The notes under the pieces were generated by a model that saw nothing but the letters and a program-made list of their open reading frames with translations, had not been told where the DNA came from and searched no databases. Positions 20,956 through 47,515 of a DNA stretch of 49,960 nucleotides are shown in pieces (position 1 is the stretch's first letter; each line of letters opens with the position of its first letter). The stretch comes from Pseudomonas phage Motto. The translations under genes and the position numbers were made by a program. The DNA is taken from the sequence record ON843697.1, one strand, 5' to 3'.

Positions 20956-22011
20956 ATGAGCGAATTTAAGGTTTTCACCTTTGACCAACTGACTAACGAC
21001 GAGTATCACGATCCTAAAGGATGGGCTGCTGAATACGTAAGCGGTTCTAACCTGGCTGAAATCTTTGCAACTTGTCCGGCTGCATGGAAGTTTAAGAAGC
21101 GTGAAGAAACCAAAGCACTTGTTTTCGGTACGCAGTCACATACCAACTTTCAGAGCGCAGAGCTTTTCAATCAGGAATACCGTAGAGCAACCAATCCAGA
21201 CGATGTAAAAGATCTCATTACAAGCCAGGCGGCATTAGCAGCGAAATTGAAATCTCTTGGCCTGACTGGTACAAGCGGGAAAACCTATCCAGATCTTATC
21301 AAAATCATGGTTGATAGCGATTTAGACTTAAAGGTTTTATGGCTGATTGAAATGATCGAAGAATGCCAGGCCAGAGCAGACGGAGTTCAACTTGTTCCGG
21401 CGAAAGATTACGACGCTTGCGTTACCATGCGCCGCGTACTGGAAAACATACCGGAGCACAACGCCTGTATGAATAGCCCAACAGCACAACGCGAGCTTTC
21501 AATTTTCGGCACTATAGGCGGCGTGAAAGTCAAAGTTAGATTGGATCACGTTGATGTTTGCAGTAATGTTTCAGTAAACAAGAAAACTGGCGTTGATCCT
21601 GATGGGTTCCCGATTTATGAGACTGTTGTTTATGACGAAGCAGTAGTTATTACAGACTACAAGACAACAGCAAGCGCTAACCCGAAAGACTTCTCACGAT
21701 CTGCTTTCGATCATGGTTATTACTTGAAGATGGCTTTGCAGCACGATTTATTCAAACGTGCATACCCTGGAGAGAAGCGGCCTGTTATTGTTCGCCTTCT
21801 TGCTCAGGAAAAGAAAGAGCCTTTTTTGCCGATCGCATTCCGCCTTACAGATGAGCAATTGCAGATCGGGCGATTACAATACATGGGCGTAATTAACCAG
21901 TTTGCAGAATGCAAGGCTCTTGACGTTTGGCCTGGATATTCAAACAACGCCGTTGAGGTTGAGTTAGAAACGCCAGCTTGGATCAGAAAGCAGTATGAGG
22001 GTTTTCTGTAA
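20956..22011 (+). CDS. PD-(D/E)XK family recombination exonuclease (RecE/RecB-Cas4-like)
   Basis: start ATG 20956 with RBS agagga; motifs RLDHVDV ... VITDYKT (D...D-x-K); precedes Erf and SSB. Confidence 0.6.
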   Translation: MSEFKVFTFDQLTNDEYHDPKGWAAEYVSGSNLAEIFATCPAAWKFKKREETKALVFGTQSHTNFQSAELFNQEYRRATNPDDVKDLITSQAALAAKLKSLGLTGTSGKTYPDLIKIMVDSDLDLKVLWLIEMIEECQARADGVQLVPAKDYDACVTMRRVLENIPEHNACMNSPTAQRELSIFGTIGGVKVKVRLDHVDVCSNVSVNKKTGVDPDGFPIYETVVYDEAVVITDYKTTASANPKDFSRSAFDHGYYLKMALQHDLFKRAYPGEKRPVIVRLLAQEKKEPFLPIAFRLTDEQLQIGRLQYMGVINQFAECKALDVWPGYSNNAVEVELETPAWIRKQYEGFL

Positions 22012-22053
22012 TAGCACGAATTGCTAAAAATAATTTACGGTTGGCTGTATAAT
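22012..22053 (+). promoter_or_regulatory. cassette copy (+): TAGCACGAATTGCTAAAA-21 nt hairpin-TATAAT
   Basis: motif begins 1 nt after exonuclease stop; leader CAACCAATCAGAGAGGAAACAAT-ATG. Confidence 0.5.
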
Positions 22054-22082
22054 TGCAGTCAACCAATCAGAGAGGAAACAAT

Positions 22083-26858: not shown

Positions 26859-27290
26859 TTAATCGTGCTCTTTGCGCTTGTATTCCATCATGTGGCGCTT
26901 TGTGCATTTCGTTGATTTAGCTTTCCCGTTGCTGTCAAAATCCAGATCTGGACGGCAGAAAGCCGCAGTGAATCCGGCGAAGCCGTTCATCTTTCTATGA
27001 TACTGGACGCGCCGCGCTAGTTCAGGCGAAATCATGCCGCGCACTTTATAAGCGTTTCTTACCGTGACATATGGCACTTTAAGCGCTCTTGCCATCGCGC
27101 CAATTCCGCCGTAAAACTCCAATACTTGCTCAAACCTTGCCTTTAGTCCGGCCTTTACTTCTGGCTTTAATACCCAGCGTGGCGGCGCTTTGCGTGGTTT
27201 CTTATCCTTCCCGCGCCTGGTTCCGTTGTTGCCATTGATGCAGCGCTTATCAATAGCGCCCGTTGATTCTGCGATCCGTGGATTGCTCAT
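26859..27290 (-). CDS. HTH DNA-binding protein (Cro/YdaS-like helix-turn-helix), candidate early regulator
   Basis: GIGAMARALKVPYVTVRNAYK HTH; very basic N-terminus; first leftward gene at a divergent hub. Confidence 0.5.
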   Translation of the reverse strand: MSNPRIAESTGAIDKRCINGNNGTRRGKDKKPRKAPPRWVLKPEVKAGLKARFEQVLEFYGGIGAMARALKVPYVTVRNAYKVRGMISPELARRVQYHRKMNGFAGFTAAFCRPDLDFDSNGKAKSTKCTKRHMMEYKRKEHD

Positions 27291-27301
27291 TTCTCACCCC
27301 G

Positions 27302-27343
27302 TAGCACTTTTTGCTAAAACATTTCATCTTGTTTGTGTATGAT
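27302..27343 (+). promoter_or_regulatory. cassette copy (+, hairpin-less): TAGCACTTTTTGCTAAAA-21 nt-TGTGTATGAT
   Basis: in 86-bp divergent region between HTH gene and helicase. Confidence 0.5.
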
Positions 27344-27376
27344 ATTCATCAAATGGCTTTTAGTAAAGGAATTGCA

Positions 27377-29407
27377 ATGATACCTAACATCGAAAAACAG
27401 CTTGCGGAGTTGGGGCAAGAAAAGATTGAAGCGCTTCAAAAGCGCTTTACGGTTGGTGAGATTGTTCCTTATCCTTATCAATGCGTAGCGTACTCTGAGA
27501 TCGCAAAACGCCTTGCTCGATATGAACACCCATTCTTTATAAAAGCGGCTGTATCAGCAGGTAAAACAATCATCTTTGCTATGGTTGCGGCTCAGTGTCG
27601 TAAGATGGGGCTTAAAATGCTCACGCTTGCTCGCCAGTCTGAGATTGTGGATCAGGACTCTAAGGAAATTAGTGCTTTTGGTGTTCCTAATTCTGTTTAT
27701 TGTGCTGGGCTTGGATTGCGCGGCGCTCACTTTCCGATCGTTGTCGGATCGGAAGGGACTGTTATCAATGGGCTTGAAAAGGCGTTAGGTGATTACGTGC
27801 CAGACGTTTTGGGGATTGATGAATGCCATCAAGTTAACTGGAATGATATTGTAGAGGCTCGCGAGAATAACGAAACGTTAGAGCAGATGAAAACGCCGAA
27901 AGGGGAATTTGTTCCAAATCCTGATTACGACATAACAAATCCGAACGGGAAATGTGAATTCCTGATTGGTGATGATGGGTTTCCGCTAAAGGGTACGGGG
28001 CGCACACAATACACAGTTATAATTGAGACAATGAGAAAGCGTTGCCTTGAAGTTAACGGGCGTGAATTGCGTATATTCGGAATGACCGGATCGGAATATC
28101 GCGGAATTGATCCGATTCTTGTCGAAGATTACAAAATACCTGGGTTTTGGCGTGAGCAGGTAACGAATATTGATACTGATTATTTGGTTAAATTCGGCTC
28201 TATTGTTACGACTCATTTCGGTAACGTTGGCGACTTGGGTTATGACCTATCAGAGTTTCACAGTGAAACAGAATTCGGCGTTGCTGATTATTCAGACGCA
28301 CAACTAAAAGCGATGAGTAACAAGATCCATAATTCGGGAACCATGACGCAACAGATAATGAACATGGTTCATGACGTTATGAAAGATCGCCTTTGCGCCC
28401 TGGTAACTTGTGCTGATGCTCGCCACTGCAAAGAAGCCGCAGCCGCACTGCCGGAAGGTACTAAATACCACATTATCACCGGAAAGACAGGAGACAAACA
28501 GCGCCGCGAATGGCTGAATGATGCGTATGAAGGAAAGGTTAAATACATTTTCCAGGTTAAAGCGCTTACTACTGGCGTAAATATTCCGCCGTGGGATACA
28601 TCAATCATTCTACGCAAAATAGGATCGCTTACTTTACTTGTTCAGCTTTTAGGGCGTGGAATGCGCCAGTTAAAGAGCTATCACAAAAACGAGTTAGGCA
28701 TGGTTAAAAATGATCACCTTGTTTTAGATTTTTCTGGAACAATGTTCGAAATGGGTGCTATGTATTTCAATCCACTGCTTGAACAGGCTCAATATCAATT
28801 GCGTAAATTCCAGAACAAAGAGACAAAGTTTTGCCCGATCTGCAACACTGAGAATTCTTTCTATGCTCGCAGATGCATACATGAAGATAACAATGGCACC
28901 AGGTGCGAATATTTTTGGTCATACCAGGAATGCGAGGATATAAAAGATCCTAAAACGAAAAAGATTATCAAGAAAGGTTGCGGTACTAAAAACGATCCAT
29001 CGGCCAGGGTTTGCCGTTGTTGCGGAGAGCGGTTAAAAGATCCGAATGAGGAATTACAGAGAACAGCATACAGGAAGGATGAATTTTACAAGGTTGTTGA
29101 CTTCAAAGTTAAGTTAACAAGTAACCAGAAAGGAATTCTTTTCCAGTATGATTTACTTGGGATAAATGGCGATAGTTTTACGGCATATGAGACGTTTTGG
29201 GTTCACAGTGAATCTAAATGGATTCGCGGAGCCTGGAAGTCAGTTTGCTTTAAACATATTATTGATAAGAGAATTGCAGGTGCTACGGCTGCATATAAAG
29301 ACGCAAGAAAGGTAATGATGAATGCACATCACTTTTTAGCGCCTAAGCGCGTCACGTGGCGCAAGAACACGAAAGGCGATGATATGATCGGCAACAAGGA
29401 GTATTAA
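27377..29407 (+). CDS. SF2 DEAD/DEAH-box DNA helicase with C-terminal Cys-rich zinc-ribbon region
   Basis: Walker A AAVSAGKT, DECH box, motif VI QLLGRGMRQ; C-terminal CPICN...C...CRCCGERL; start ATG 27377 with RBS aagga. Confidence 0.7.
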   Translation: MIPNIEKQLAELGQEKIEALQKRFTVGEIVPYPYQCVAYSEIAKRLARYEHPFFIKAAVSAGKTIIFAMVAAQCRKMGLKMLTLARQSEIVDQDSKEISAFGVPNSVYCAGLGLRGAHFPIVVGSEGTVINGLEKALGDYVPDVLGIDECHQVNWNDIVEARENNETLEQMKTPKGEFVPNPDYDITNPNGKCEFLIGDDGFPLKGTGRTQYTVIIETMRKRCLEVNGRELRIFGMTGSEYRGIDPILVEDYKIPGFWREQVTNIDTDYLVKFGSIVTTHFGNVGDLGYDLSEFHSETEFGVADYSDAQLKAMSNKIHNSGTMTQQIMNMVHDVMKDRLCALVTCADARHCKEAAAALPEGTKYHIITGKTGDKQRREWLNDAYEGKVKYIFQVKALTTGVNIPPWDTSIILRKIGSLTLLVQLLGRGMRQLKSYHKNELGMVKNDHLVLDFSGTMFEMGAMYFNPLLEQAQYQLRKFQNKETKFCPICNTENSFYARRCIHEDNNGTRCEYFWSYQECEDIKDPKTKKIIKKGCGTKNDPSARVCRCCGERLKDPNEELQRTAYRKDEFYKVVDFKVKLTSNQKGILFQYDLLGINGDSFTAYETFWVHSESKWIRGAWKSVCFKHIIDKRIAGATAAYKDARKVMMNAHHFLAPKRVTWRKNTKGDDMIGNKEY

Positions 29408-29409
29408 AC

Positions 29410-29799
29410 ATGTATCATGAATTTTACGACAAGAAAGCAACAGATACCCGTTCAGAAGATGCACACCAGGTTGATTCTATAGCGTGGTTGCGTTACAAGT
29501 TTCCGACCTGGATCGTGTTCCACGTTAACAACGAAGGAAAGAAGGGGATCGGTCAATCGGTAAAGGATCAGATGAAGGGGCTTTTAAAGGGCGTCCCTGA
29601 CATCCTGATAATTCCTGACAGAAGTCAATGCAAGTATGGATTTATCGCGATCGAGTTGAAGCGAGCAAAGAAATCACTTTCTCACGTATCTGATGAGCAA
29701 AAGAAATTCCTTGAGCGCGTGAATGAAAATGGCGGCTTTGGTGCTCTATGTTATGGCGTCGAGCAGGTTAAAGTGGCAATTGAAGAAGCGTTAAAATAG
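29410..29799 (+). CDS. VRR-NUC domain nuclease
   Basis: IAIELKRAKKSLSHVSDEQKKFLERVNENGGFGALCYG matches VRR-NUC core. Confidence 0.55.
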   Translation: MYHEFYDKKATDTRSEDAHQVDSIAWLRYKFPTWIVFHVNNEGKKGIGQSVKDQMKGLLKGVPDILIIPDRSQCKYGFIAIELKRAKKSLSHVSDEQKKFLERVNENGGFGALCYGVEQVKVAIEEALK

Positions 29800-29840
29800 C
29801 ACGAATTGCTAAAACAGCCGCAAAGGAATGCGGCATAATG
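29797..29840 (+). promoter_or_regulatory. cassette copy (+): TAGCACGAATTGCTAAAA-23-ATAATG, hairpin ccgcaaaggaatgcgg
   Basis: TAG of motif is the stop of the VRR-NUC gene. Confidence 0.55.
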
Positions 29841-29871
29841 CACACAATGAAACAAACAGGAGACACAAAAG

Positions 29872-30616: not shown

Positions 30617-30862
30617 ATGGATGATAAAGTTTTACAGTTAAATGAAGCTGGGTTATGGCTCATGTATCGCGCAATCGTATGTGAAACGATAGTTCAGAAT
30701 GAGCTTGAAGAATACTTTGATCGCGATTTGTGGTCTTGGACTGAATGCCTGGATGCAAGTTTTGAAGAAACGGAAGAGCTTGAGTTTTCGGACTGGCGAC
30801 AAAAAATCGTTGATGATTTGGAAGAATACATTTCATGCGAGATTAAAAGAAAAATGCATTGA
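30617..30862 (+). CDS. hypothetical acidic protein (81 aa)
   Basis: ATG 30617 with RBS ggag; track start 30563 is an upstream extension inside dam. Confidence 0.45.
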   Translation: MDDKVLQLNEAGLWLMYRAIVCETIVQNELEEYFDRDLWSWTECLDASFEETEELEFSDWRQKIVDDLEEYISCEIKRKMH

Positions 30863-30906
30863 TAGCACTTTTTGTTAAAAGCCCCGCAAGGGGCTTTGTT
30901 ATTATG
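30863..30906 (+). promoter_or_regulatory. cassette copy (+): TAGCACTTTTTGTTAAAA-23-ATTATG, hairpin gccccgcaaggggc
   Basis: seen directly. Confidence 0.55.
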
Positions 30907-30936
30907 TATCCAACGAAACGAATTGGAGACGCGAAC

Positions 30937-33387: not shown

Positions 33388-33806
33388 AAAAAGACTTGTT
33401 ATATCTCATCGTGATTCCTGCATTTGCCGTTTCTATTATGTTGCTAACAGCTTGCTCACCGTCTACGGCGCTGACTGGTCTGATTGGTAGCAAACCTGAC
33501 GTTACGGCGCAAGTCGGAGCGGAGAATGTGAAACAAACTGTTGGAGTAACTGCAAAGCAGGACACATCAAGCAAGCAGGAAACCACATTCAAAGAGTCGG
33601 CAGTGGGAAAGGTTGACACTTCAAACAAGAAGCAGATCAGCACATCCAGCATTAAGGCCGATAACATTACGGCAGACAGGATCGAGATTAGAAATAATGA
33701 ATCAGATATCTGGCAAATGGCGCTTGCTTTTTTTATCGCTGGCATCATTGCAGGATCTGGAGTTACCGCGATATACGCAACACGCAGAAACAACAAAGCC
33801 CCTTAA
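33384..33806 (+). CDS. unimolecular spanin (u-spanin, T1 gp11-like)
   Basis: N-terminal lipoprotein signal with lipobox LLTAC and C-terminal TMD ([21 protein letters not shown]); ATGA overlap with endolysin stop. Confidence 0.6.
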
Positions 33807-33819
33807 TCGGGGCTTTTGT

Positions 33820-34080
33820 TTATCCAAATGATCTCAAATTAAAATCTTCTTCCGCCTGGTTAGCTACGTTTGTGAACATTTGCTCAAGGCTTTCAAAACT
33901 CATTTTCTTTGCAATCTCATCGGCGCTAAATCCTTCATCTTCAAGTCTTTTTGCTTCACAGTAATGCATTTCAAGATTGTCTAAATATTTGTTTCCTGTT
34001 GGGATTGCTTCATCAATTTTGTCCCACACGATCCAGAAGTTTGTTTTATCCGCCGCCGCTAACACTATGCTGTTTTTCAT
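33820..34080 (-). CDS. hypothetical early protein (86 aa)
   Basis: ATG 34080 after leader ...CGAGGAAAACAAA; track 34113 start is the in-frame ATG inside the cassette box. Confidence 0.45.
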   Translation of the reverse strand: MKNSIVLAAADKTNFWIVWDKIDEAIPTGNKYLDNLEMHYCEAKRLEDEGFSADEIAKKMSFESLEQMFTNVANQAEEDFNLRSFG

Positions 34081-34110
34081 TTTGTTTTCCTCGATTCGTT
34101 TCGTTGAGTA

Positions 34111-34154
34111 CATAGTAGCAAACCCGCCGAAGCGGGTTTTAACAAAAAGTGCTA
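34111..34154 (-). promoter_or_regulatory. cassette copy (-): TAGCACTTTTTGTTAAAA-23-ACTATG, hairpin cccgcttcggcggg
   Basis: TAG of motif is stop of gene 34152..34343. Confidence 0.55.
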
Positions 34155-34343
34155 TTTTCTTCTCAACTCAATAAGCCAACGAACAACAATCTTTCTCGTT
34201 TCGATCCAATCTTCATCCGTGAAATCATCGTATGTTGGCTCAAGGTTTTTATAGTCTGGCGGTTCGTACCGTTCAGGATTAGGAAGGCTGCTTAAAATCT
34301 TCTTCCTCTTTGCGCTTTTGCGTTTATCCCTACCTTTACCCAT
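34152..34343 (-). CDS. hypothetical basic protein (63 aa)
   Basis: RBS aggtga; Lys/Arg-rich N-terminus. Confidence 0.45.
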   Translation of the reverse strand: MGKGRDKRKSAKRKKILSSLPNPERYEPPDYKNLEPTYDDFTDEDWIETRKIVVRWLIELRRK

Positions 34344-36444: not shown

Positions 36445-36471
36445 ACTTCATGATCTCCTTTCTAATGCCGC

Positions 36472-36515
36472 CATTATAGCGGCATTATGTTACCCTCTTT
36501 TAGCAATTTGTGCTA
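36472..36515 (-). promoter_or_regulatory. cassette copy (-): TAGCACAAATTGCTAAAA-23-ATAATG with box in hairpin loop gccgcTATAATGgcggc
   Basis: seen directly. Confidence 0.5.
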
Positions 36516-36761
36516 TTCGATCCGCTCGACTCTCGCCAGTAAATGACCGTCAATGATGCTTTTCGCTTCAAGCGTTACAGGGTCAAAATCAAGCGATCGG
36601 TGAAATGATGTACCAATCAGGAATGATGAATGCTTATCCTTCACCAGATAAACCACGTCGCCAGGCTTCATTGTGCTTATATCGCTGAACGTGCAACGAA
36701 AAGCATTTTGCATCATGATCCGCGATTTATGCGGAGTGTAGTCTTTTTCAGGTAGATTCAT
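36513..36761 (-). CDS. hypothetical protein (82 aa)
   Basis: ORF. Confidence 0.4.
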   Translation of the reverse strand: MNLPEKDYTPHKSRIMMQNAFRCTFSDISTMKPGDVVYLVKDKHSSFLIGTSFHRSLDFDPVTLEAKSIIDGHLLARVERIE

Positions 36762-37378: not shown

Positions 37379-37408
37379 TTTGTTTTCCTCAGTTCGTTTC
37401 GTTAAAAG

Positions 37409-37452
37409 CATTATGCCGGATACGTGATCCGGCGTTTTAACAAAAAGTGCTA
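37409..37452 (-). promoter_or_regulatory. cassette copy (-): TAGCACTTTTTGTTAAAA-23-ATAATG, hairpin gccggatcacgtatccggc
   Basis: TAG is stop of methyltransferase gene. Confidence 0.55.
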
Positions 37453-38145
37453 TTTCTGATTTGCAAGGCAGACAGCCAGGGCGAAGCCGCGAGGCGTGAG
37501 AGAACGGATCAACTTTGTGCGTTTAGACTTTCCGCCGAGCTTTAGCCAGCCAGGATTAGCATTTCCAGTTGGCAACACTGCTTTAGTGTCTGGCATTTCA
37601 AAGCCGTTACCCGTCCAGAGGCAGGTTTTCTTTGTGTAAGCGTCACGCGCCGGAATGATTTCAGGGAAATGAGGATGCTTATCATCTTCCGGCAGGTATC
37701 CACCAAACCCGCAAGGATGGAAAATATAATCAGGTTGCCGCCACATCGTCGATAACACGCTGATCGGATTTTCTACCATGTACGGAACACCAAACCATTC
37801 CCCCAACTCACTTGCAATCATTGCCGTTTCTGTTGCCTTAATCTGGAATTCAGGATCACGCTCACGCTTTGCCGCGAAGTGACGCGAGCCACTAACAGCC
37901 AGGTCAGTGCAAGGCGGAAACGCAATGATGAAATCAGGAATTCCCCACTCTTTACTGATGGCGCGAACGGTAAAACGCCCATCAATCCAGACATTCACAT
38001 ACTCTATATTGGGATGGGTAATGCGCACCTGGTGATAGTCTCCATGATCAGCATCATCGTAATTGAAACAAATCACTTTGTGACCACGTTCCGCCCACGG
38101 AAGCGCGTCATAACCGGAACCGCTAAAAAGTGAAAAAATCAACAT
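37450..38145 (-). CDS. short DNA (cytosine-5)-methyltransferase-like protein
   Basis: motif I LFSGSGYD, motif IV FPPCTD (PC), ENP(ISVL) motif; start ATG 38145 with RBS gagagg (track start 38205 is further upstream). Confidence 0.5.
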   Translation of the reverse strand: MLIFSLFSGSGYDALPWAERGHKVICFNYDDADHGDYHQVRITHPNIEYVNVWIDGRFTVRAISKEWGIPDFIIAFPPCTDLAVSGSRHFAAKRERDPEFQIKATETAMIASELGEWFGVPYMVENPISVLSTMWRQPDYIFHPCGFGGYLPEDDKHPHFPEIIPARDAYTKKTCLWTGNGFEMPDTKAVLPTGNANPGWLKLGGKSKRTKLIRSLTPRGFALAVCLANQK

Positions 38146-38242
38146 GCCTAAATCCTCTCTGTAACGCGTTGTGAGACGCTTTGTTTTATGGCTATGCAAT
38201 CGCATTGCCTTGATAAAGAAAAGGCCGCAGCGTTAGCCGCAG

Positions 38243-39115: not shown

Positions 39116-39158
39116 TATAATATCAGAATGGTTCAATGTGTTTTAGCAATTCGTGCTC
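39116..39158 (-). promoter_or_regulatory. cassette copy (-) located inside the 3' end of gene 39123..39311 (AGAGCACGAATTGCTAAAA ... ATTATA)
   Basis: motif encodes EHELLK of the upstream protein. Confidence 0.4.
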
Positions 39159-39311
39159 TTTTACCGCGATGAACGGATATCCGCTTAAATCGCCGTTGCG
39201 ATACCTGGCAGACCTGATCCAGTTCCCGCACTTGCTCAGGTATAACGCTTTATGATGGCGATGGTTGACGCGGTAGAATCGACCGCTTTTAACATTCTTG
39301 AAGTATGTCAT
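39123..39311 (-). CDS. hypothetical basic protein (62 aa)
   Basis: ORF. Confidence 0.4.
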   Translation of the reverse strand: MTYFKNVKSGRFYRVNHRHHKALYLSKCGNWIRSARYRNGDLSGYPFIAVKEHELLKHIEPF

Positions 39312-39998: not shown

Positions 39999-40029
39999 TT
40001 TGTTGTTCTCCAGTTCGTTTCGTTGAAGT

Positions 40030-40073
40030 AACTATATCAATTCGGCGCGATCCGGTTTTAACAAAAAGTGCTA
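40030..40073 (-). promoter_or_regulatory. cassette copy (-): TAGCACTTTTTGTTAAAA-23-ATAGTT
   Basis: TAG is stop of gene 40071..40289. Confidence 0.55.
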
Positions 40074-40289
40074 TTCAACAATGACGCGGTAAGCGTGATC
40101 GCTCACATACTCCAGGCTGATAACGCCACTCTTGATTAGCTCGTCAATCGTGGCGCTATGCCAACCAGTTTGCACCACGTCAGGAAAGTGATAGCTCATG
40201 CAGTATCCATGATGTCGCTGGATCACGATTTTGTTTTTGCTCTTTTTGAAGCACTCAAGAAAGCGCCTTTCATCGCGGCTCATAACCAT
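40071..40289 (-). CDS. hypothetical protein (72 aa)
   Basis: ORF. Confidence 0.4.
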   Translation of the reverse strand: MVMSRDERRFLECFKKSKNKIVIQRHHGYCMSYHFPDVVQTGWHSATIDELIKSGVISLEYVSDHAYRVIVE

Positions 40290-40678
40290 TCCCCCGACAC
40301 AATGAAGCGCGTGAAATCATCCTGATCGGTGATTGTGTCTTGACCATAGTCAGCCTTGCGATCCGCAATCCATGACATAAAGCGTGAGTTGCGTTGCGCC
40401 ACAGTACCGGAATAGACGTAATTGAATCCCATGTGTGCAATGAATGCCACAAAGCGGATCTGAAAACCTTGATTCTCAAGCATGGCCTGCTCTACCAGTG
40501 AGAAAAAGTTGTCACGATTAACTTTCGGCTTAACCGGAACCATAGTACCTAACTCGATCATGCGGTTGAACATTTCCAGATCCATACGCGCTTTAGATGT
40601 GATGTCACTATTGCCGTAGTAGATAACGCCATTCTCGATCCAGTAGGTCAGGCCATTGTAGGTGTTGGTGTATTTCAT
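40280..40678 (-). CDS. hypothetical protein (132 aa), first gene of leftward early block
   Basis: ATG 40678 after leader CATCGAAACGAACTGAGGAATTCACC. Confidence 0.45.
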   Translation of the reverse strand: MKYTNTYNGLTYWIENGVIYYGNSDITSKARMDLEMFNRMIELGTMVPVKPKVNRDNFFSLVEQAMLENQGFQIRFVAFIAHMGFNYVYSGTVAQRNSRFMSWIADRKADYGQDTITDQDDFTRFIVSGEWL

Positions 40679-40709
40679 GGTGAATTCCTCAGTTCGTTTC
40701 GATGAGCAC

Positions 40710-40753
40710 ATTATGCCTGATCGGTCTGTTGCTGTTTTAGCAAAAAGTGCTAT
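40710..40753 (-). promoter_or_regulatory. cassette copy (-): TAGCACTTTTTGCTAAAA-23-ATAATG
   Basis: first element of leftward block. Confidence 0.55.
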
Positions 40754-41040
40754 TGATGTGATTTGATTGTTAATGCTCGTTCTGATTACATTTTGTGCAT
40801 CTTGAGTGCATGATGATTATGATTAATCAATTTTGAGTGTGTGAGTGATTGCTCTCAATCAATCGACTCTGTTTGATTGTTTCAGTTGATGCAATAATTA
40901 AAAGGACTGTTGCGCCAGATGAAATAATAATTTTCTCGCCACGCATCAAATCACCCGAGAAGCCAGGCGGGGCAACCGTTCAGAGCGATTCCGGCTTGCA
41001 CATTCCAGGCTCATCCTGGCTCGCTCGTCCGGCGCTGTAG

Positions 41041-41998: not shown

Positions 41999-42232
41999 AT
42001 GTTGAGTGAAAAGCAAATCGAAAACATCGTTGAAGCAATCAAGGTAATGAGTGAAGGCAACGAGATATCAAAGGCGGAATGGGAACATATAAAAATGCGA
42101 GTCGATACCAGGCTTGCGCGTGTTTACGGTGACGGGTTCGATAACCGTTTTCCAGTTGGTAGCGCGGCATTCTCTCAAGCCGTCAACGGCCTGGCTAACA
42201 ACGGCGTGAAGTTCAGCGTGGAGTATGAATAA
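41999..42232 (+). CDS. hypothetical protein (77 aa)
   Basis: ORF, RBS ggagga. Confidence 0.4.
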   Translation: MLSEKQIENIVEAIKVMSEGNEISKAEWEHIKMRVDTRLARVYGDGFDNRFPVGSAAFSQAVNGLANNGVKFSVEYE

Positions 42233-42477
42233 TGAAAGTCAAGTGCATCAATAGCAGTTGCAATTGGTTCACCCAGGGGCGGGAATACTCCGCCCAACAA
42301 TATGACCACCTCACGATCGCAATCTTACAGGATGATATGTGCTCAGACCTGGGCGAAAACGATGATGCGTGGTATGCGACGAAAGCCAGGTTGCGCGGCG
42401 TAGAGGGTGATATGTACACGATACAGACGTTTAACCCGTTCCGATACCTTGCGGCGTTTACTCTGATTGGTGAATAG
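42232..42477 (+). CDS. hypothetical protein (81 aa)
   Basis: ORF. Confidence 0.4.
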   Translation: MKVKCINSSCNWFTQGREYSAQQYDHLTIAILQDDMCSDLGENDDAWYATKARLRGVEGDMYTIQTFNPFRYLAAFTLIGE

Positions 42478-42518
42478 CACTTTTTGTTAAAACTCATCCG
42501 GTGGATGCTGGCATAATG
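42475..42518 (+). promoter_or_regulatory. cassette copy (+): TAGCACTTTTTGTTAAAA-23-ATAATG
   Basis: TAG is stop of previous gene. Confidence 0.55.
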
Positions 42519-42547
42519 CATTCATCGGAACAAATGAGGAAAACAAA

Positions 42548-42881: not shown

Positions 42882-43093
42882 TGATCGAGTTCAACGGATG
42901 CAATTTACCGGATAACACTGTAAAGGCCGTACCTGGCAACCGTTCCGGCGTGTATTTCATGACTGATGATAATCAGCACTGGTTCACGAATGAAATGCAC
43001 AAAACAGGCTTGAAGGTTGGCGAGCGCGGTTATTACGCCGGATCTAACTTGCGAGTCAGCGAAGAAAAATACTTTAAGGAGATCACAGAATGA
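42881..43093 (+). CDS. hypothetical protein (70 aa)
   Basis: ORF. Confidence 0.4.
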   Translation: MIEFNGCNLPDNTVKAVPGNRSGVYFMTDDNQHWFTNEMHKTGLKVGERGYYAGSNLRVSEEKYFKEITE

Positions 43094-43548
43094 AGCACCT
43101 GGTATGCACTGCAACACGTTACGCTGATGATTGCGGATTAAACCATATCGGCGAATACGGACAATACCTGTTCTGCAAGAAGCCGGAAATCAAAAGAGAA
43201 TGGGGATACAAGCCAACGGATATCGAAATCAATAACGATGATATTCCATGCTACATCATGAAGCGGATCGGCAAGAACAAGTATTCTGCCTATGGCGACT
43301 CATCCGTTTACACTGCGATCCCAATGCGCAAGAGGCTAATCAACGCTTTCCAGGAGTGCGCGATCACATACGGTTGGATGAGCAAGCGCCAGGCGCGGAA
43401 GTGGGCGCGTTGTGTTGCGGATTGCTATTTCGAAAAGGATGGAAGCGCATCATGTGAAATGATCAGGACGTTCACTGATTGGTACAATGGCGACTACTGC
43501 CAGGCAAACTTTGACGATTTCGCAATGACGGAAATCAGCTATTGGTAA
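43090..43548 (+). CDS. hypothetical Cys-containing protein (152 aa)
   Basis: ORF. Confidence 0.45.
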   Translation: MKHLVCTATRYADDCGLNHIGEYGQYLFCKKPEIKREWGYKPTDIEINNDDIPCYIMKRIGKNKYSAYGDSSVYTAIPMRKRLINAFQECAITYGWMSKRQARKWARCVADCYFEKDGSASCEMIRTFTDWYNGDYCQANFDDFAMTEISYW

Positions 43549-43549
43549 A

Positions 43550-43598
43550 TAGCACTAAAAGCTAAAACACGATCGCGGGGTTATCGTATGGTAGCCCC
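43550..43598 (+). promoter_or_regulatory. cassette copy (+), variant TAGCACTAAAAGCTAAAA with weak box
   Basis: seen directly. Confidence 0.4.
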
Positions 43599-43623
43599 AC
43601 ACAAACAACAGAAGGAAAGCTAA

Positions 43624-43842
43624 ATGAAAAACGTCAAAATCAGGCTCCTTAATGATGGCGATTATCCTTTCAAAGATGAGCACAATCGCACGTTTCCTGT
43701 TATCGTAAATGGTTATATTGGCGATGGTTATTCCGGCCTTGTTCATGTTTATTACGAAGATTGCAAAGCGATCGGTATGTATCCGACTGATGGCGTGGAT
43801 TACCCATTTTACCTAGTTACGGAAGCGGAGATCGTGAAATGA
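43624..43842 (+). CDS. hypothetical protein (72 aa)
   Basis: ORF. Confidence 0.4.
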   Translation: MKNVKIRLLNDGDYPFKDEHNRTFPVIVNGYIGDGYSGLVHVYYEDCKAIGMYPTDGVDYPFYLVTEAEIVK

Positions 43843-44084
43843 GTTGCTATATCATTCAAATCGCGCCAGTCGAGCAAATGCCAGTAGGCGCAACTCTGCA
43901 TTATATCCAGCGCAAAGATGGCGAATGGGACGAACTGAGATTCAAGCCGCGCCGCATTGAAGTACACGACGATGTTATTTGCCTGCTCTCCGGTTACGCT
44001 GGAGCATACAAGACAGGAAACAATTACGGCGCTGAAATAAACATAACTCGCGGTACAAAAATCAAATACAGCACGAATTGCTAA
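43839..44084 (+). CDS. hypothetical protein (81 aa)
   Basis: stop TAA lies inside cassette 18-mer. Confidence 0.4.
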   Translation: MSCYIIQIAPVEQMPVGATLHYIQRKDGEWDELRFKPRRIEVHDDVICLLSGYAGAYKTGNNYGAEINITRGTKIKYSTNC

Positions 44085-44112
44085 AACAGCCTGGAGCGGT
44101 TGCGATATAGTG
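44069..44112 (+). promoter_or_regulatory. cassette copy (+): CAGCACGAATTGCTAAAA-23-ATAGTG
   Basis: seen directly. Confidence 0.5.
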
Positions 44113-44143
44113 ACCGCACACAAACGAACAAAAGGAAATAAAA

Positions 44144-44443
44144 ATGAAATTAGCACGTAACGCGGTATTCGCAATTGTTGACGGCTACAATGTGAGGGCA
44201 TTCTTGCACGTAAATAAAGATGATCTTATTAATCCTTTCTGGGTTAGCGATTACGGCAAAAACGGGTTTAGTGTTCATGGTGAGTTGTGCAAGGCTCTTG
44301 GCGATGCTGGCGGTCATGAGCACTGGAGAGGCGTTTGTGATGGTCATCATGAAATCATCATGATTCAAAGCCACGTAACGAGCGCCGATAAAGTTGATTT
44401 CAAGCGCTGCATGAAGTTCTTTAAAAAGCGCACAAAACGCTAA
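44144..44443 (+). CDS. hypothetical protein (99 aa)
   Basis: ORF. Confidence 0.4.
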   Translation: MKLARNAVFAIVDGYNVRAFLHVNKDDLINPFWVSDYGKNGFSVHGELCKALGDAGGHEHWRGVCDGHHEIIMIQSHVTSADKVDFKRCMKFFKKRTKR

Positions 44444-44509
44444 AACTTCCGCAAGCCCATTCGCTAAAGTGGGCTTATTGAAGCAAGGCAACCAATCAGA
44501 GGAATAACC

Positions 44510-44770: not shown

Positions 44771-45287
44771 TTTATGGGATCGAAGATATCCGCTTTCATC
44801 GCCGAAAGGTGTCGTTATTGTGGATTATGACGGAACGTTGAGCAACGGAACGCACCGCTTGCACCTGTTGCCAACGGAAAACTTACACCTTACTGAATCA
44901 TGGAGTGAGTTTAATCGCGCCGCCGTGAACGATACGCCATTCAGTAGCACGATAGCTGTGATTAACTCGCTATGGGTTGCAGGTCACGCAATCATTATCC
45001 TAACAGGGCGAAGTGATGAGGTTGAGGCTGAATCTCACAAATGGCTAAAGGATAACGGCGTGAAATATGATTTCATGATCATGCGCCGCGCAACTGACAA
45101 CCGGAAAGATACCGTTATCAAAGAGGAAGTTTTACGCGCTATCGGCCTGGAAAATATAGTGTGCGCCTTTGATGATTCTCCAAGCGTGATCCGCCACTTC
45201 CGCAGCCTGGGGATCGCAACATTCGCGGTAACTGAGTACGATAAGCCGCATTCACACTTACAGAGTCACGGAGTTGATGAGCTATGA
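44757..45287 (+). CDS. HAD-superfamily phosphatase (polynucleotide 3'-phosphatase-like)
   Basis: motif I VIVDYDGTL, motif II ILTGRSD, motif IV FDDSPSV; start uncertain (ATG 44757). Confidence 0.5.
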   Translation: MQSFNLWDRRYPLSSPKGVVIVDYDGTLSNGTHRLHLLPTENLHLTESWSEFNRAAVNDTPFSSTIAVINSLWVAGHAIIILTGRSDEVEAESHKWLKDNGVKYDFMIMRRATDNRKDTVIKEEVLRAIGLENIVCAFDDSPSVIRHFRSLGIATFAVTEYDKPHSHLQSHGVDEL

Positions 45288-45436
45288 CAACATGGTTATT
45301 GATCGCAATTAGCTATTATGGCGGAATGCAGCCTGTTGAATTTACAAGCCATAAGGCTTGTATTGAGGCCAGGGAAACAGTTAAAAAACACACCCCTGTG
45401 GGTTGGGCTAATACTTACGTTTGCGTCAAGAAATAG
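45284..45436 (+). CDS. small protein (50 aa)
   Basis: not in track; ATGA overlap; stop is TAG of next cassette. Confidence 0.3.
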   Translation: MTTWLLIAISYYGGMQPVEFTSHKACIEARETVKKHTPVGWANTYVCVKK

Positions 45437-45477
45437 CACGAATTGCTAAAAGCGGGGCGCAATACCCCGCTATAATG
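45434..45477 (+). promoter_or_regulatory. cassette copy (+): TAGCACGAATTGCTAAAA-23-ATAATG, hairpin gcggggcgcaataccccgc
   Basis: seen directly. Confidence 0.55.
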
Positions 45478-45505
45478 CAACCAACGAAACAACAAGGAGA
45501 TAACA

Positions 45506-45808: not shown

Positions 45809-45987
45809 TTCTGGATAATGACATTGCAACAACAAAGACGATCAACTATCTGCGCACCCTGGCGGATATGCTGGAAAACAAACAGGTATACGTGAACGAT
45901 ATTTCTATTGAATCGCGTAATGTATGCTGGAACGTAGAAGAAGAAACATTAACTTTGCAGACAATGAAGGCGGTAAACAATGGCTAA
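45805..45987 (+). CDS. hypothetical protein (60 aa)
   Basis: ATG 45805 overlapping previous stop; track start 45796 is GTG. Confidence 0.35.
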   Translation: MILDNDIATTKTINYLRTLADMLENKQVYVNDISIESRNVCWNVEEETLTLQTMKAVNNG

Positions 45988-46564
45988 AATCATTCTACTC
46001 AACGCCCCGAAAGGGGCAGGAAAGGACACTGTAGCAAACGCAATTTGTGAGCGCCTGGATTACCCGCGCAAAGCAAGCTTTAAAGCGCCAATGTTTCAGA
46101 TCGCGCTTGCCATCCTGGGGCAACATAATTATTGCCGATTCCTTGACGTTTACGGCGACAGAGAGCAGAAGGAAAAAGCACATGATTTCCTGATGGGTAT
46201 GACTTGCCGCCAATTCATGATCTGGATTAGCGAAGAAGTGATTAAACCGAAGTTTGGTGAAAAGTATTTCGGCAAACGCCTGTCAGACCTGGCCGCTAAT
46301 TCTGATTATCCTGTTATCGTCTCAGATTGCGGATTTGAGCAAGAAGTGATTGCGCTGATTGAGGGCGGTCATGAAGTGAAGTTGGTTCGTATGCATCGCC
46401 AGGGATTCGAGTTTGACGAAACTGACAGCCGAAACTACGTTTACTTGCCAGCGTGCTACTACGGCGAAAACGGATATGAAGAAATCGACGTTGATTTGTT
46501 CGATGGCGATCCGGTATATACCGCTTATGAACTTATTCACAAGTTCAAACTTAAACAGCACTAA
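45980..46564 (+). CDS. deoxynucleoside monophosphate kinase-like P-loop kinase (T4 gp1-like)
   Basis: N-terminus MAKIILLNAPKGAGKDTVANAI closely resembles T4 dNMP kinase MKLIFLSGVKRSGKDTTADFI. Confidence 0.55.
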   Translation: MAKIILLNAPKGAGKDTVANAICERLDYPRKASFKAPMFQIALAILGQHNYCRFLDVYGDREQKEKAHDFLMGMTCRQFMIWISEEVIKPKFGEKYFGKRLSDLAANSDYPVIVSDCGFEQEVIALIEGGHEVKLVRMHRQGFEFDETDSRNYVYLPACYYGENGYEEIDVDLFDGDPVYTAYELIHKFKLKQH

Positions 46565-46599
46565 TTGCTAAAGCTTGCTAAGAGGCATTTGATATAGTG
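46556..46599 (+). promoter_or_regulatory. cassette copy (+): CAGCACTAATTGCTAAAG-23-ATAGTG
   Basis: kinase stop TAA lies inside motif. Confidence 0.45.
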
Positions 46600-46632
46600 C
46601 CTCTTGTCGAGTGAACCAATCAGGAGAATCAA

Positions 46633-46812: not shown

Positions 46813-46994
46813 TATACGCGCACAACGAAGATTTTGCGGTTTATACTCCTGGCGTGAGCTATGAAATTAAAACGGTTAATCATCGCAAGTGCGCCGAGTA
46901 TGCCCTAATAACTTACGATAAAGATGGCGATTTGCTAAATACGATAATGCTTACGCCTGAACAACACGAAAACTTGAAAGTGGAGATTTGTTAA
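46809..46994 (+). CDS. hypothetical protein (61 aa)
   Basis: ATGA overlap with upstream stop; 3' part of track ORF 46611..46994. Confidence 0.4.
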   Translation: MIYAHNEDFAVYTPGVSYEIKTVNHRKCAEYALITYDKDGDLLNTIMLTPEQHENLKVEIC

Positions 46995-47443
46995 TGAAAA
47001 TTTTAATGGTTGCAAAGAAAACTGTTGATGGAATTATCACAGAGGGCAAGCAATACGCAGTTGAGGATTTCACCGATTCTCTTTACATGGTGAAAGGCGA
47101 CAATGGAAAGTATGCAATTGTAAAGGAACACTTTGAAAGTCCTTTCTTAAATAGCGTCAAGCAGATCGCAAATAAGGCTGATGAGCTTGCAAAGAAAGAG
47201 CGTGAGCGTGTACGCGATAACGTATTAAACGCGCCTTTTGTTGGTGGGGCTGGATGGCGCATTCATCGTGAAGGTGATGTTACATTCGCTGATATCAAGA
47301 GCAACAATTTCCAACCTAATGCATACTTTGATACCCTTGATGAATTGCGCAAGATTCTACGTGTGCCAGAGGGTGATAACATTCTGACTCATGCCAGGAT
47401 GGTTAGAGAATTGGCTGACGTTCTGATCAAATTGCAGAAATAG
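46994..47443 (+). CDS. hypothetical protein (149 aa)
   Basis: ATG 46994 in TAATG overlap; track start 46988 is TTG. Confidence 0.45.
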   Translation: MKILMVAKKTVDGIITEGKQYAVEDFTDSLYMVKGDNGKYAIVKEHFESPFLNSVKQIANKADELAKKERERVRDNVLNAPFVGGAGWRIHREGDVTFADIKSNNFQPNAYFDTLDELRKILRVPEGDNILTHARMVRELADVLIKLQK

Positions 47444-47484
47444 CACTTTTTGTTAAAAGCCGGAATTCGTTTCCGGCTATTATC
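47441..47484 (+). promoter_or_regulatory. cassette copy (+): TAGCACTTTTTGTTAAAA-23-ATTATC, hairpin gccggaattcgtttccggc
   Basis: TAG is stop of previous gene. Confidence 0.55.
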
Positions 47485-47515
47485 TTCTCAACGAAACAAC
47501 ACAGAGGAATAAAAA

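Follow-up and report, generated by a model that had tools for sequence, protein, structure and literature searches.

Why do genes of a phage end inside a repeated element, on a stop codon that the repeat itself supplies? The question is raised by positions 34152-34154 of a 49,960-nucleotide stretch of Pseudomonas phage Motto (ON843697.1), called the window below, where a minus-strand gene ends on the TAG of such a repeat. The original prediction listed ten stop codons, eight TAG and two TAA, that are provided in this way by an 18-mer. All of these coordinates are right, and all ten are real ORF ends in the ORF list. The window represents almost the whole genome of a T1-like phage (Drexlerviridae); its closest relative is Vibrio phage Vc1 (Drexlerviridae), with which it is colinear at ~83% identity.

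The 18-mer is the core of a 21-nt direct repeat, aaATAGCACnnnTTGnTAAAA, that has previously been described in phage TLS and is found also in T1, Rtp and Rogue1 (German, Kropinski, Misra et al. 2024, PMC11447400). That paper terms the repeats intergenic and of unknown function, with a stoperator, an enhancer site or an UP element as guesses (PMC11447400). It mentions neither stop codons nor an overlap of repeats with genes, and it reports three sigma-70-like promoters only, without linking the repeat to a -10 at fixed spacing, a hairpin or a leader. A literature search for mapped promoters or transcriptomes of the T1 family found nothing relevant. The window holds 18 copies, 16 with no mismatch to AGCACN5GYTAAAA and 2 with one mismatch, against a baseline of 10.5 +/- 3.2 loose matches in the shuffled window. 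The repeats of the window and of TLS have the same sequence and the same sub-types (TTT, GAA, AAA), and they also agree in how many there are, how they are oriented and how far from the start codon they lie. Specifically, the family profile gives the consensus aaATAGCACnnnTTGnTAAAA with conservation highest at ATAGCAC and TAAAA, every copy points the same way as the gene that follows it, the 21-mer begins 77-78 nt before the ATG (about 76 nt in TLS), and the host genome is a T1-like member of the Drexlerviridae with about 18 copies. The repeat is thus already known, and its role in stop codons and the cassette architecture described here are modest additions.

The copies, with the sequence that follows each up to the next gene (the cassette), are given below together with the upstream stop codons. 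Offset 0 is the T of TAG in the repeat, and "-10" denotes a predicted hexamer.

29794..29871 (+), cassette: repeat 29794-29814 (AAATAGCACGAATTGCTAAAA), hairpin present, -10 CATAAT at 29834-29839, Dam methylase ATG at 29872; TAG 29797-29799 ends the VRR-NUC-like ORF 29410..29799
42472..42547 (+), cassette: repeat 42472-42492, -10 at 42512-42517, next ATG at 42548; TAG 42475-42477 ends the ORFan 42232..42477
45431..45505 (+), cassette: repeat 45431-45451, -10 TATAAT at 45471-45476, next ATG at 45506; TAG 45434-45436 ends 45284..45436 (phrog_5579, alignment reaches the last residue)
47438..47515 (+), cassette: repeat 47438-47458, -10 at 47478-47483, next ATG at 47516; TAG 47441-47443 ends 46988..47443 (phrog_13504, alignment reaches the last residue)
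34081..34157 (-), cassette: repeat 34137-34157, hairpin ACCCGCTTCGGCGGGT, -10 at 34112-34117, ATG of a holin-like gene at 34080; TAG 34152-34154 ends 34152..34343, which has an annotated orthologue in Vc1
36445..36518 (-), cassette: repeat 36498-36518, hairpin enclosing the -10 TATAAT at 36473-36478, helicase-like ORF from 36444; TAG 36513-36515 ends 36513..36761 (phrog_12725)
37379..37455 (-), cassette: repeat 37435-37455, -10 at 37410-37415, next ATG at 37378; TAG 37450-37452 ends the Dcm-like methylase 37450..38205
39999..40076 (-), cassette: repeat 40056-40076, weak hairpin, -10 TATAGT at 40031-40036, ATG at 39998 (phrog_6147); TAG 40071-40073 ends 40071..40289 (phrog_37078)
44066..44143 (+), cassette: CAG replaces TAG, next ATG at 44144; TAA 44082-44084 (+13, in TGCTAAAA) ends 43839..44084, with the motif-encoded tail YSTNC
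46553..46632 (+), cassette: CAG replaces TAG, hairpin enclosing the -10 TATAGT at 46593-46598, next GTG at 46633; TAA 46562-46564 (+6, CACTAATTG) ends the dNMP kinase 45980..46564
44425..44509 (+), degenerate cassette: GCGCACAAAACGCTAAAA, copy at 44429, next ATG at 44510; TAA 44441-44443 (+13) ends 44144..44443; both cassette and stop were missing from the original prediction
43546..43623 (+), cassette: next ATG at 43624; TAA 43546-43548 (-4, TAAATAGCAC) ends 43090..43548 and overlaps the leading A's of the repeat
22009..22082 (+), cassette: follows the exonuclease gene, next ATG at 22083 (Erf-like annealing protein in Vc1); TAA 22009-22011 (-3) ends the exonuclease gene and abuts the repeat TAG as a tandem TAATAG
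30860..30936 (+), cassette: strong terminator-like hairpin GCCCCGCAAGGGGC followed by TTTGTTATTAT, next ATG at 30937; TGA 30860-30862 (-3, TGATAGCAC) ends the upstream ORF
27299..27376 (+), cassette with no upstream same-strand gene: TAGCAC kept, no hairpin (dG -2.7), helicase ATG at 27377
40679..40755 (-), cassette, first of a leftward operon with no upstream gene: ATAGCAC kept, weak hairpin (dG -4.5), ATG at 40678
20411..20486 (-), cassette: CAGCAC, no clear upstream ORF, no hairpin, next ATG at 20410
39141-39161 (-), repeat copy in the element 39116..39161: GAG replaces TAG, no hairpin, no SD/ATG at the usual distance
26859..27290 (-), gene of a candidate DNA-binding regulator: phrog_2856 "transcriptional regulator", weak sub-threshold match to a YdaS/Cro-like HTH

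The cassette at 27299..27376 sits in a divergent region beside the regulator gene 26859..27290 (-). Behind the cassette at 40679..40755, the mechanical ORF 40280..40711 is aligned to its PHROG only from residue 12 on, and so the true start is at offset +74. The odd copy at 39157 (-) has no tRNA and no Rfam match on its 3' side, where the fold z-score is 0.04.

Among the 15 copies in the window that have an upstream ORF on the same strand, 14 have the stop codon of that ORF within -4 to +15 of the repeat. Four of these stops come on top of the ten originally listed (those of 44144..44443 and 43090..43548, and the codons at 22009-22011 and 30860-30862). The lone exception is the GAG-bearing copy at 39157 (-), through which the ORF 39123..39311 (-) runs to a TGA at +33. 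Eight of the 14 stops fall on one exact position (p ~7e-13, uniform model) and 11 lie in the frame of TAG, against one third expected (p = 7e-4). It is important to note that the repeats contain 8 of the roughly nine credible TAG stops in the window. Eight of the ten originally listed ORFs match PHROG families, several of them aligned through the final residue. Neither PHROGs nor a tblastn search of phage genomes gave a homologue of the ORFan 42232..42477, and tight packing behind a real gene is the sole support for this ORF. A chance origin of the stop pattern is excluded.

The same pattern is seen in a family-wide set of 444 repeat copies from relatives, which covers T1, TLS, Vc1 and more than 100 metagenomic loci. 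In this set, whose copies are phylogenetically related and in which the gene calls of the IMG/VR loci are crude (longest-ORF greedy), 340 copies have an upstream ORF and 87% of these ORFs stop in or against the repeat. The stops are found at offsets 0 (169 ORFs), -4 (32), -3 (27), -1 (9), +6 (15) and +13 (43). Counted by unrelated upstream protein families, 98 of 116 (84%) stop in the repeat, 54 of them at TAG, and the split between frames is 68:16:14 with the TAG frame in excess (p = 3e-13). The repeat also leaves its mark on the proteins: K or E is the last residue in 49 of the 58 families that end at TAG, and proteins with the stop at +13 have the C-terminus NSTNC or NSTFC, encoded by the motif. 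Where TAG is mutated the ORF becomes longer, as in the VRR-NUC gene of Vc1, which extends to +72, and at the window copy just described. Among copies with no upstream ORF, conservation reaches 0.90 for the A at -1 and 0.81 for the T at 0; with an upstream ORF it is 0.85 overall for the T. As ATAG is conserved equally well where no gene precedes it, the DNA motif comes first and the coding sequence adapts to it.

What the motif may do as DNA is suggested by its fixed distance to the elements downstream. A -10 hexamer is located at +37 in 276 of the 444 copies and at +/-1 of this position in 31 more. The spacing from repeat to -10 is a rigid 19 nt. G at -14 is present in about 88% of the copies and TG in this region in about 45%; conservation is also seen for C at +48 and for A at +49, and the position of the ATG peaks at +74/75. 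This is not a canonical sigma-70 promoter: no -35 is found at 16-18 nt, a scan for canonical -35/-10 pairs gave 25 in the region versus 34 expected and none at the cassettes, and the distance from TTGnTA to the -10 is 22 nt, too far for a normal sigma-70 -35. A sigma-54 promoter (TGGCAC-N5-TTGCW) was also rejected, because the repeat reads TAGCAC-N3-TTGC, with AG in place of GG and a spacing 2 nt short. The sequence TAGCA-N5-TG(C/T)TA is centred at offset 7, which corresponds to -42 provided that transcription starts with the A at +49. Since this 5-bp inverted repeat (TAGCA-N5-TGCTA) is centred near -42, the repeat is possibly a protein-binding site; compared with a class II activator site near -41.5, the dyad consists of 5 bp only and its flanks are asymmetric. 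The only candidate binder is the HTH-like protein of phrog_2856, for which, as for the other of the two annotated "regulators", Pfam gave sub-threshold matches only. This protein is ST23 in T1 and gp57 in TLS, and its gene adjoins the primase gene in T1, TLS and Vc1, a conserved arrangement. We infer that this regulator may act on the repeat.

Based on these results we consider it probable that the repeat belongs to a composite terminator/promoter cassette of ~75 nt, and that genome compaction together with gain and loss of modules at the 5' edge of the repeat has put stop codons inside it. The repeat would be the 5' end of this fixed-geometry cassette, which would fill the whole intergenic space, and would serve as an upstream promoter element at the level of DNA, spanning roughly -50 to -32 when counted from the predicted start of transcription. 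Next would come a hairpin, its sequence differing between copies, that occupies the spacer or covers the -10, then the G at -14, a TATAAT-like -10 at +37, a CA start at +48/+49 and a conserved leader of ~25 nt that leads to SD and the ATG at +74/75. The hairpin would serve the upstream transcript as a terminator, an attenuator or a 3' stabiliser. The motif offers TAG in frame 0 and TAA at +13 in frame 1, and it tolerates a TAA at -4 or -3. Units made of a cassette and one or more genes would be gained, lost and swapped, with the left breakpoint at the 5' edge of the repeat. In such an exchange the resident stop would be replaced by that of the motif, often with the gain of a single codon for Lys or Glu, or of a short tail that the motif encodes.

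The hairpin bears directly on this reading. In copies with the stop at offset 0 the folding energy has a mean of -12 kcal/mol and 95% are at or below -6; in copies without an upstream ORF the mean is -7 with 48% at or below -6, and in shuffled sequence -4 with 22%. The four window copies at which no ORF ends have values of 0 to -4.5. The hairpin thus appears essentially only where a gene ends, and in four T1 cassettes the terminators annotated for this phage coincide with offsets +19 to +50, which is consistent with a terminator. The same correlation would be expected if the stop position were itself selected, with translation ending at a fixed point ahead of hairpin and promoter so as to give a defined minimal 3' UTR, to leave the terminator free to fold or to keep ribosomes off the promoter. 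Such a functional coupling also has in its favour the excess of the TAG frame, among families as well as in the window, and the position of the stem, which begins ~22 nt downstream of a stop at 0, clear of the terminating ribosome. However, 44 of the 98 families stop at -4, -3, -1, +6 or +13 instead, and the T of TAG is equally conserved when no gene lies upstream. Moreover, a stop at +13 leaves only ~12 nt before the stem, and the stem is not shifted significantly to compensate (median start 24.75 with +13 stops versus 22.25, p = 0.06); ribosome-hairpin spacing was for this reason rejected as the cause of the TAG preference. We regard coupling as unlikely, and selection for a defined 3' end, which the original prediction had offered as one of two explanations, is not borne out, with stops at -4, -3, +6 and +13 all tolerated and the p value of the hairpin shift at 0.06. 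It should be added that passive run-in alone does not explain the frame split of 68:16:14. The composite cassette needs an extra assumption here, a candidate for which is either selection against motif-encoded tails or microhomology joining at TA(A/G).

The other half of the composite-cassette reading concerns how genes are packed and exchanged. Genes separated by a cassette have a median gap of 69 nt, this being the cassette itself, and genes with none between them a median of 3 nt. The earlier statement that the cassettes stand flush against coding sequence with no spacer is therefore correct, and it is general. As no free intergenic DNA is kept, upstream ORFs end on or against the repeat. 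At the junction at 42476 (+) homology to eight other phages starts exactly at AATAGCAC, and at 37451 (-) it stops exactly at the downstream ATG: relatives keep the upstream gene and the cassette 37379..37455 (-), and the genes from the ATG onward are unrelated. Two boundaries of blocks shared with Vc1, 42473 and 37371, lie on cassette edges. Among gene indels a cassette is present at the left junction in 26 of 67, compared with a background of 15% (p = 2.6e-6), and ten indels consist in the presence or absence of units of a cassette with its gene or genes. In the short forms, where the unit is absent, the upstream gene bears its own TAA or TGA, and so the stop travels with the cassette. The same genes without the cassette and with other stops had been named beforehand as a sign of coincidence; they do occur, yet they point the opposite way.

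Evidence that the cassettes are preferred points of exchange is mixed. Only 1 of the 67 indels has cassettes on both sides, no enrichment of cassettes was found at the right edges of these indels, and junctions without cassettes are also shuffled a lot. The ends of BLAST HSPs are weakly enriched in cassettes (10% versus 5.6%), a poor measure of breakpoints because most HSP ends reflect divergence inside genes. When the conservation of gene partners is compared, single-partner families make up 31% versus 56% with the upstream gene as anchor (p = 0.008), and with the downstream gene as anchor there is no effect. Gene-by-gene modular acquisition, the other explanation originally offered, thus stands as far as the exact junctions, the enrichment at left edges and the ten cassette-plus-gene events go; the single double-flanked indel, the unenriched right edges and the shuffling at cassette-less junctions speak against it. 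Of the two things that were to be looked for in relatives, a breakpoint at the 18-mer is seen at the 5' edge of the repeat (AATAGCAC), and presence/absence polymorphism of cassette-plus-gene units in ten cases.

These junctions allow for two further explanations. The repeat could be a linker with a dual role, a site at about -42 where one regulator, from the phage or the host, would bind to control about 18 units, and at the same time a preferred annealing and crossover site at which the Erf/exonuclease system exchanges promoter-led cassettes, with stops in all usable frames for any gene that comes to lie upstream; we think this rather improbable. Alternatively, it could be a dedicated recombination site, an attC-like or PeSL-like crossover, recognised by a recombination function of the phage, at which repeat-bounded units move and built-in stops cap the upstream gene. 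Homology that breaks exactly at the 5' edge of the repeat, the left-edge enrichment of indels and the ten cassette-plus-gene events fit such a site, and these phages encode an exonuclease, an Erf-like annealing protein and an SSB. Against this, nearly all indels lack a second bounding cassette and right edges are unenriched, cassette-less junctions are mosaic too, no integrase-type gene is present in the annotated relatives, and the fixed register of the -10 is explained by promoter function and not by recombination. We therefore give a dedicated site a low probability.

The promoter register bears also on the idea that the repeat is an RNA element, a 3'-UTR signal in the upstream transcript (for RNase E, Hfq, ProQ or processing) whose overlap with stops reflects this role. 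The repeat is AU-rich, single-stranded and directly 5' of the hairpin in most copies, and it is always co-oriented with transcription, as such a signal would be. Nevertheless, a 3'-end signal in RNA needs neither a rigid 19-nt spacing to a -10 nor a CA start, and where no gene lies upstream the repeat is kept and the hairpin lost (27303 (+), 40751 (-) and 20482 (-) in the window, 35845 (+) in TLS, 36446 (+) in T1), which makes this role very unlikely. Finally, that a TAG-bearing motif in AT-rich DNA simply ends any preceding mechanical ORF is hardly credible and is refuted: stop triplets in two frames do make it likely that an entering ORF ends there, and one of the eight TAG-ending ORFs is the unverified ORFan, but 8 of the ten ORFs belong to real protein families, 84% of 116 unrelated families reach the repeat with no earlier stop, the statistics of exact position and frame exclude chance, and T1, TLS, Vc1 and more than 100 metagenomic loci repeat the pattern.

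The closest known counterpart of the composite cassette are the PeSLs, promoter-early stem-loop cassettes of T4-type phages (Arbiol et al. 2010, PMC2839356; Comeau et al. 2014, PMC4122927). Like PeSLs, the T1-like units would be small repeated terminator/promoter cassettes; they too reach from the upstream stop to the next SD/ATG, have a stem-loop that overlies the -10 or separates it from an upstream element, are concentrated among small accessory genes and may act as junctions of modular exchange. PeSLs differ in having a consensus sigma-70 -35 and -10, whereas the T1-like cassette is without a -35 at a workable spacing, and their stop merely lies in an AT-rich stretch, whereas the T1-like motif has the stop among its invariant positions. 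The T1-like cassettes occur in siphoviruses (Drexlerviridae), and the sequences of the two are not homologous as far as seen. In addition, mini-circles and promoter and terminator activity have been shown for PeSLs; in the T1-like cassettes promoter and terminator are predictions from sequence.

Morons of lambdoid phages, studied by Hendrix and colleagues, are reportedly promoter-gene-terminator units inserted between conserved genes. They resemble the present units, which would likewise be self-expressed, in being present or absent between otherwise adjacent genes (ten events here). The T1-like units differ in that all share a standard promoter cassette, that the predicted terminator precedes the promoter instead of following the gene, and that the left edge of the unit gives its neighbour the stop codon. 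Stoperators of the temperate mycobacteriophage L5 are repressor sites (cited in PMC11447400). They too are many short asymmetric sites in one orientation to transcription and in short intergenic spaces, but they have no fixed -10 register, while the T1-like phages are virulent and their repeat stands in a promoter geometry. No repressor or integrase is annotated in the relatives, and the fixed register with a promoter speaks against the repeat being a roadblock and nothing more. In integron attC sites the stop codon of the cassette ORF often lies inside the recombination site. There as well a conserved boundary element of a mobile cassette ends the adjacent ORF; the difference is that attC, which is without a promoter, follows its own gene on the 3' side, while here there is no integrase and the repeat belongs to the downstream unit.

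The biology is incremental and not surprising. What it offers is to turn the open question of repeat function in the 2024 TLS paper into a concrete model that can be tested: a standard terminator and an extended -10 promoter, in which transcription is predicted to start 49 nt after TAG and positions -50 to -32 hold an upstream element, and by which about 18 units would each be insulated from their neighbours. The model accounts for the Lys-TAG and Glu-TAG ends and the NSTNC-type tails of many unrelated phage proteins and for nearly all TAG stops in these genomes. For annotation, the cassette allows stops and starts to be predicted; several starts, deposited or mechanical, extend into it, and loss of TAG gives spurious-looking extensions such as that of the Vc1 VRR-NUC gene. 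The cassettes also show the sites of gain and loss of accessory genes, which is useful for the engineering of T1-like phages. If the linker with a dual role were true, it would be a siphovirus counterpart of PeSLs or of integron attC with the stop built into the site. The cassette model extends the idea behind PeSLs beyond T4-like myoviruses.

Upstream stop codons coincide with the repeat in a way that is genuine, highly non-random and family-wide. By repeat we mean the 21-nt direct repeat of T1-like phages, and by cassette the ~75-nt unit of repeat, hairpin, -10 and leader up to the next ATG; offsets are counted from the T of the repeat TAG. The original prediction had ten genes ending within the repeat core. 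The mechanical ORF list bears out all its coordinates, and four extra repeat copies have a stop in or against the repeat:

Stop codons at repeat copies in the window
29410..29799, plus strand: ORF, stop is the TAG of TAGCAC
42232..42477, plus strand: ORF, stop is the TAG of TAGCAC
45284..45436, plus strand: ORF, stop is the TAG of TAGCAC
46988..47443, plus strand: ORF, stop is the TAG of TAGCAC
34152..34343, minus strand: ORF, stop is the TAG of TAGCAC
36513..36761, minus strand: ORF, stop is the TAG of TAGCAC
37450..38205, minus strand: ORF, stop is the TAG of TAGCAC
40071..40289, minus strand: ORF, stop is the TAG of TAGCAC
43839..44084, plus strand: ORF, stop is a TAA within the repeat, offset +13
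45980..46564, plus strand: ORF, stop is a TAA within the repeat, offset +6
44429: extra repeat copy, upstream stop TAA at +13
43551: extra repeat copy, upstream stop TAA at -4
22013: extra repeat copy, upstream stop TAA at -3
30864: extra repeat copy, upstream stop TGA at -3

The stop lies inside or abuts the repeat at 14 of the 15 window copies having an upstream ORF on the same strand. Eight of these 14 stops share one position (exact-position test, p ~7e-13) and 11 are in the TAG frame (p = 7e-4). Nearly all credible TAG stops of the window genome are repeat TAGs. Eight of the ten predicted ORFs fall into PHROG families, and for several the alignment extends through the final residue; 34152..34343(-) has an annotated orthologue in Vibrio phage Vc1, and 42232..42477 is an unverified ORFan.

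The window (49,960 bp) is an almost complete T1-like siphophage genome (Drexlerviridae), colinear with Vc1 (Jhansiroadvirus, NC_054898.2) at ~83% identity; TLS, Stevie, T1 and many Citrobacter, Salmonella and Escherichia phages are more distant relatives. Matches at ~77% nucleotide identity include "Streptococcus phage MBBL140" (OR786094.1) and ~20 further records with Campylobacter jejuni as host label; the window genome is of the enterobacterial T1-like type, and the host labels or sample purity of these records look doubtful. Vc1, TLS, T1 (NC_005833.1), STSR3 (MT500539.1) and 120 IMG/VR loci retrieved by motif formed our comparative set. The STSR3 record is unreliable for annotation-based comparison: product names seem displaced relative to genes ('Ssb protein' is a helicase-sized CDS of 1.9 kb, 'terminase small subunit' one of 1.5 kb) and numerous CDSs are apparently fragmented. 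The set yields 444 unique repeat copies, 340 with a clear upstream ORF; gene calls in the metagenomic loci are crude and the copies phylogenetically non-independent. Stops fall at offset 0 in 169 of the 340, at +13 in 43, -4 in 32, -3 in 27, +6 in 15 and -1 in nine, and 87% lie in or at the repeat. Collapsed to 116 unrelated upstream protein families, the stop is in the repeat in 98 and at the TAG in 54, with a frame use among these families of 68:16:14 (chi-square p = 3e-13).

Free intergenic DNA is not kept in these genomes: the median gap between genes is 3 nt without a cassette and 69 nt with one. The repeat carries a frame-0 TAG and a frame-1 TAA and tolerates TAA at -4/-3, so that ORFs terminate in it or abut it. 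Passive run-in by itself leaves the frame-0 excess unaccounted for; selection that disfavours motif-encoded tails and frame-2 read-through may be behind it or, alternatively, microhomology joining at TA(A/G). A constraint on ribosome-to-hairpin spacing is unsupported (p = 0.06).

It appears from the sequences that the DNA motif is primary and the upstream coding sequence fits itself to it, because the motif is conserved without an upstream gene, protein ends are motif-encoded and ORFs run on where the TAG is mutated. In copies lacking an upstream ORF, A at -1 is conserved at 0.90 and T at 0 at 0.81, equal to copies with one. Proteins ending at the TAG have a C-terminal Lys or Glu in 49 of 58 families (AAA or GAA is motif sequence), and in those stopping at +13 the motif encodes the tail, for instance NSTNC or NSTFC. 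The Vc1 repeat that separates VRR-NUC from dam (29699-29773) has AAGCAC for TAGCAC, and the deposited VRR-NUC CDS (29381..29773) therefore extends through the entire cassette to +72, with its TAA just ahead of the dam ATG; the cause is a natural read-through variant or, alternatively, an error in sequencing. At window copy 39157(-) GAG replaces TAG and the upstream ORF reads on to +33. This cassette has no hairpin, and its leader is ~190 nt (next ATG 38920) as compared to the usual 25 nt; within 38925-39161(-) no tRNA or Rfam match was found and the fold z-score is 0.04.

Family profile and register test over the 444 copies give a fixed layout. A -10 hexamer lies at +37 in 276 copies, within 1 nt of it in 31 more and almost nowhere else. 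Relative to the inferred start site, G stands at -14 in ~88% of copies (TG in ~45%), a putative extended -10. Conserved C at +48 and A at +49 would fit a transcription start site, and downstream ATGs peak at +74/75. With the start taken as +49, the repeat covers about -50 to -32. The distance from TTGnTA to the -10 is 22 nt, 5 bp beyond the sigma-70 -35 limit; a consensus scan found no canonical promoters at cassettes. Likeness to a sigma-54 promoter was rejected (wrong spacing, GG missing). TAGCA-N5-TG(C/T)TA forms a short inverted repeat with its centre close to -42, a layout matching that of class II activator sites. Since the symmetry is only 5 bp, this putative site is no more than a lead, and the conserved HTH-like regulator phrog_2856 (26859..27290, minus strand) is by inference a candidate binder. 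Mechanical ORF starts at 34113, 37411 and 40711 (all minus strand) fall inside cassettes at or near the -10, as does at least one deposited start (Vc1 holin, 33696..33989). The true starts are likely the conserved SD/ATG at +74 (34080, 37378, 40678); the PHROG alignment of ORF 40280..40711 begins at residue 12, i.e. 40678.

Fold energy over +15..+52 averages -12 kcal/mol where the stop is at offset 0 (<= -6 in 95%), -7 without an upstream ORF (48%) and -4 in shuffled sequence (22%). The four window copies at which no ORF ends have 0 to -4.5, and all but one of the rest -10 or lower. Four 'rho-independent terminator' features of T1 coincide with cassette hairpins at ~+19 to +50 (38973-39001, 39998-40024, 41980-42007 and 35930-35971, the minus-strand one reaching +64), and therefore terminator and presumed promoter overlap. 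Because folding strength tracks the presence of an upstream gene end, the hairpin probably serves the upstream gene, while repeat, -10 and leader would serve the downstream gene as a putative promoter. Such a division of labour speaks against a role of the repeat as a signal for RNA 3' ends.

Two other elements were noticed. An AT-rich element of ~200 bp containing TTCTATATAATACATACA and a TATATATAT stretch occurs at 20460-20670 and 41043-41209 (79% identity), in two divergent control regions adjoining the leftward cassettes 20482(-) and 40751(-). Vc1 carries it too (20493-20672 matches window 41043-41209); possible identities are a strong early promoter and an origin-like region. A repeat-like copy, AGCATTTTTTGTTAAAC, lies antisense in the head-gene region (5709-5725, minus strand), with equivalents in TLS (DR7, 15044..15024, minus strand) and T1 (15084, minus strand), and may be an antisense promoter conserved within the late operon.

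The proposal that cassettes are modular exchange units is partly supported. At junction 42476+ the downstream gene is common to eight phages, the upstream genes are unrelated and homology begins exactly at AATAGCAC. At 37451- the Dcm gene and cassette are conserved and downstream genes diverge from the ATG on; window/Vc1 homology blocks start at 42473 and 37371, each of them a cassette edge. Among 67 indels of 1-3 genes, a cassette lies at the left junction in 26 (15% background, p = 2.6e-6), and right junctions show no enrichment. Other results count against the proposal: a single indel is flanked by cassettes at its two ends, HSP ends are only weakly enriched at cassettes, and the lower partner conservation at cassettes is seen with the upstream gene as anchor (p = 0.008) but is not significant with the downstream gene as anchor. 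Presence/absence polymorphism in relatives was found: cassette plus gene(s) is present or absent in ten of the 67 indels, units that resemble morons. Where the unit is missing, the gene upstream carries a TAA/TGA of its own and sits close to the following gene. Such cassette-less contexts had been expected to imply coincidence; they are indeed observed, yet they show that the stop travels with the cassette. Integron attC sites likewise supply their neighbour's stop.

TLS has 18 intergenic copies of the 21-nt repeat aaATAGCACnnnTTGnTAAAA, following the direction of transcription ~76 nt ahead of start codons; the same repeat was noted in T1, Rtp and Rogue1, and its function was left open, the suggestions being a stoperator, an enhancer site or a UP element (2024, PMC11447400). 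That paper nowhere mentions stop codons or gene overlap, and none of the other papers in the literature searched shows the motif in connection with phages. The window element shows all three defining features of this family and is a member of it. The repeat is thus already known; no description appears to exist of its role in ending upstream genes, or of its position within a fixed, putative terminator/promoter cassette. PeSLs of T4-type phages are terminator/promoter cassettes at modular exchange junctions (PMC2839356, PMC4122927). Identity with them was rejected, since the window cassette has no sigma-70 -35, belongs to another phage family and has the stop as an invariant motif position, while in PeSLs the stop is merely nearby. 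By analogy, the cassette would work like a PeSL: a composite putative terminator/promoter running from upstream stop to downstream ATG at junctions of modular exchange.
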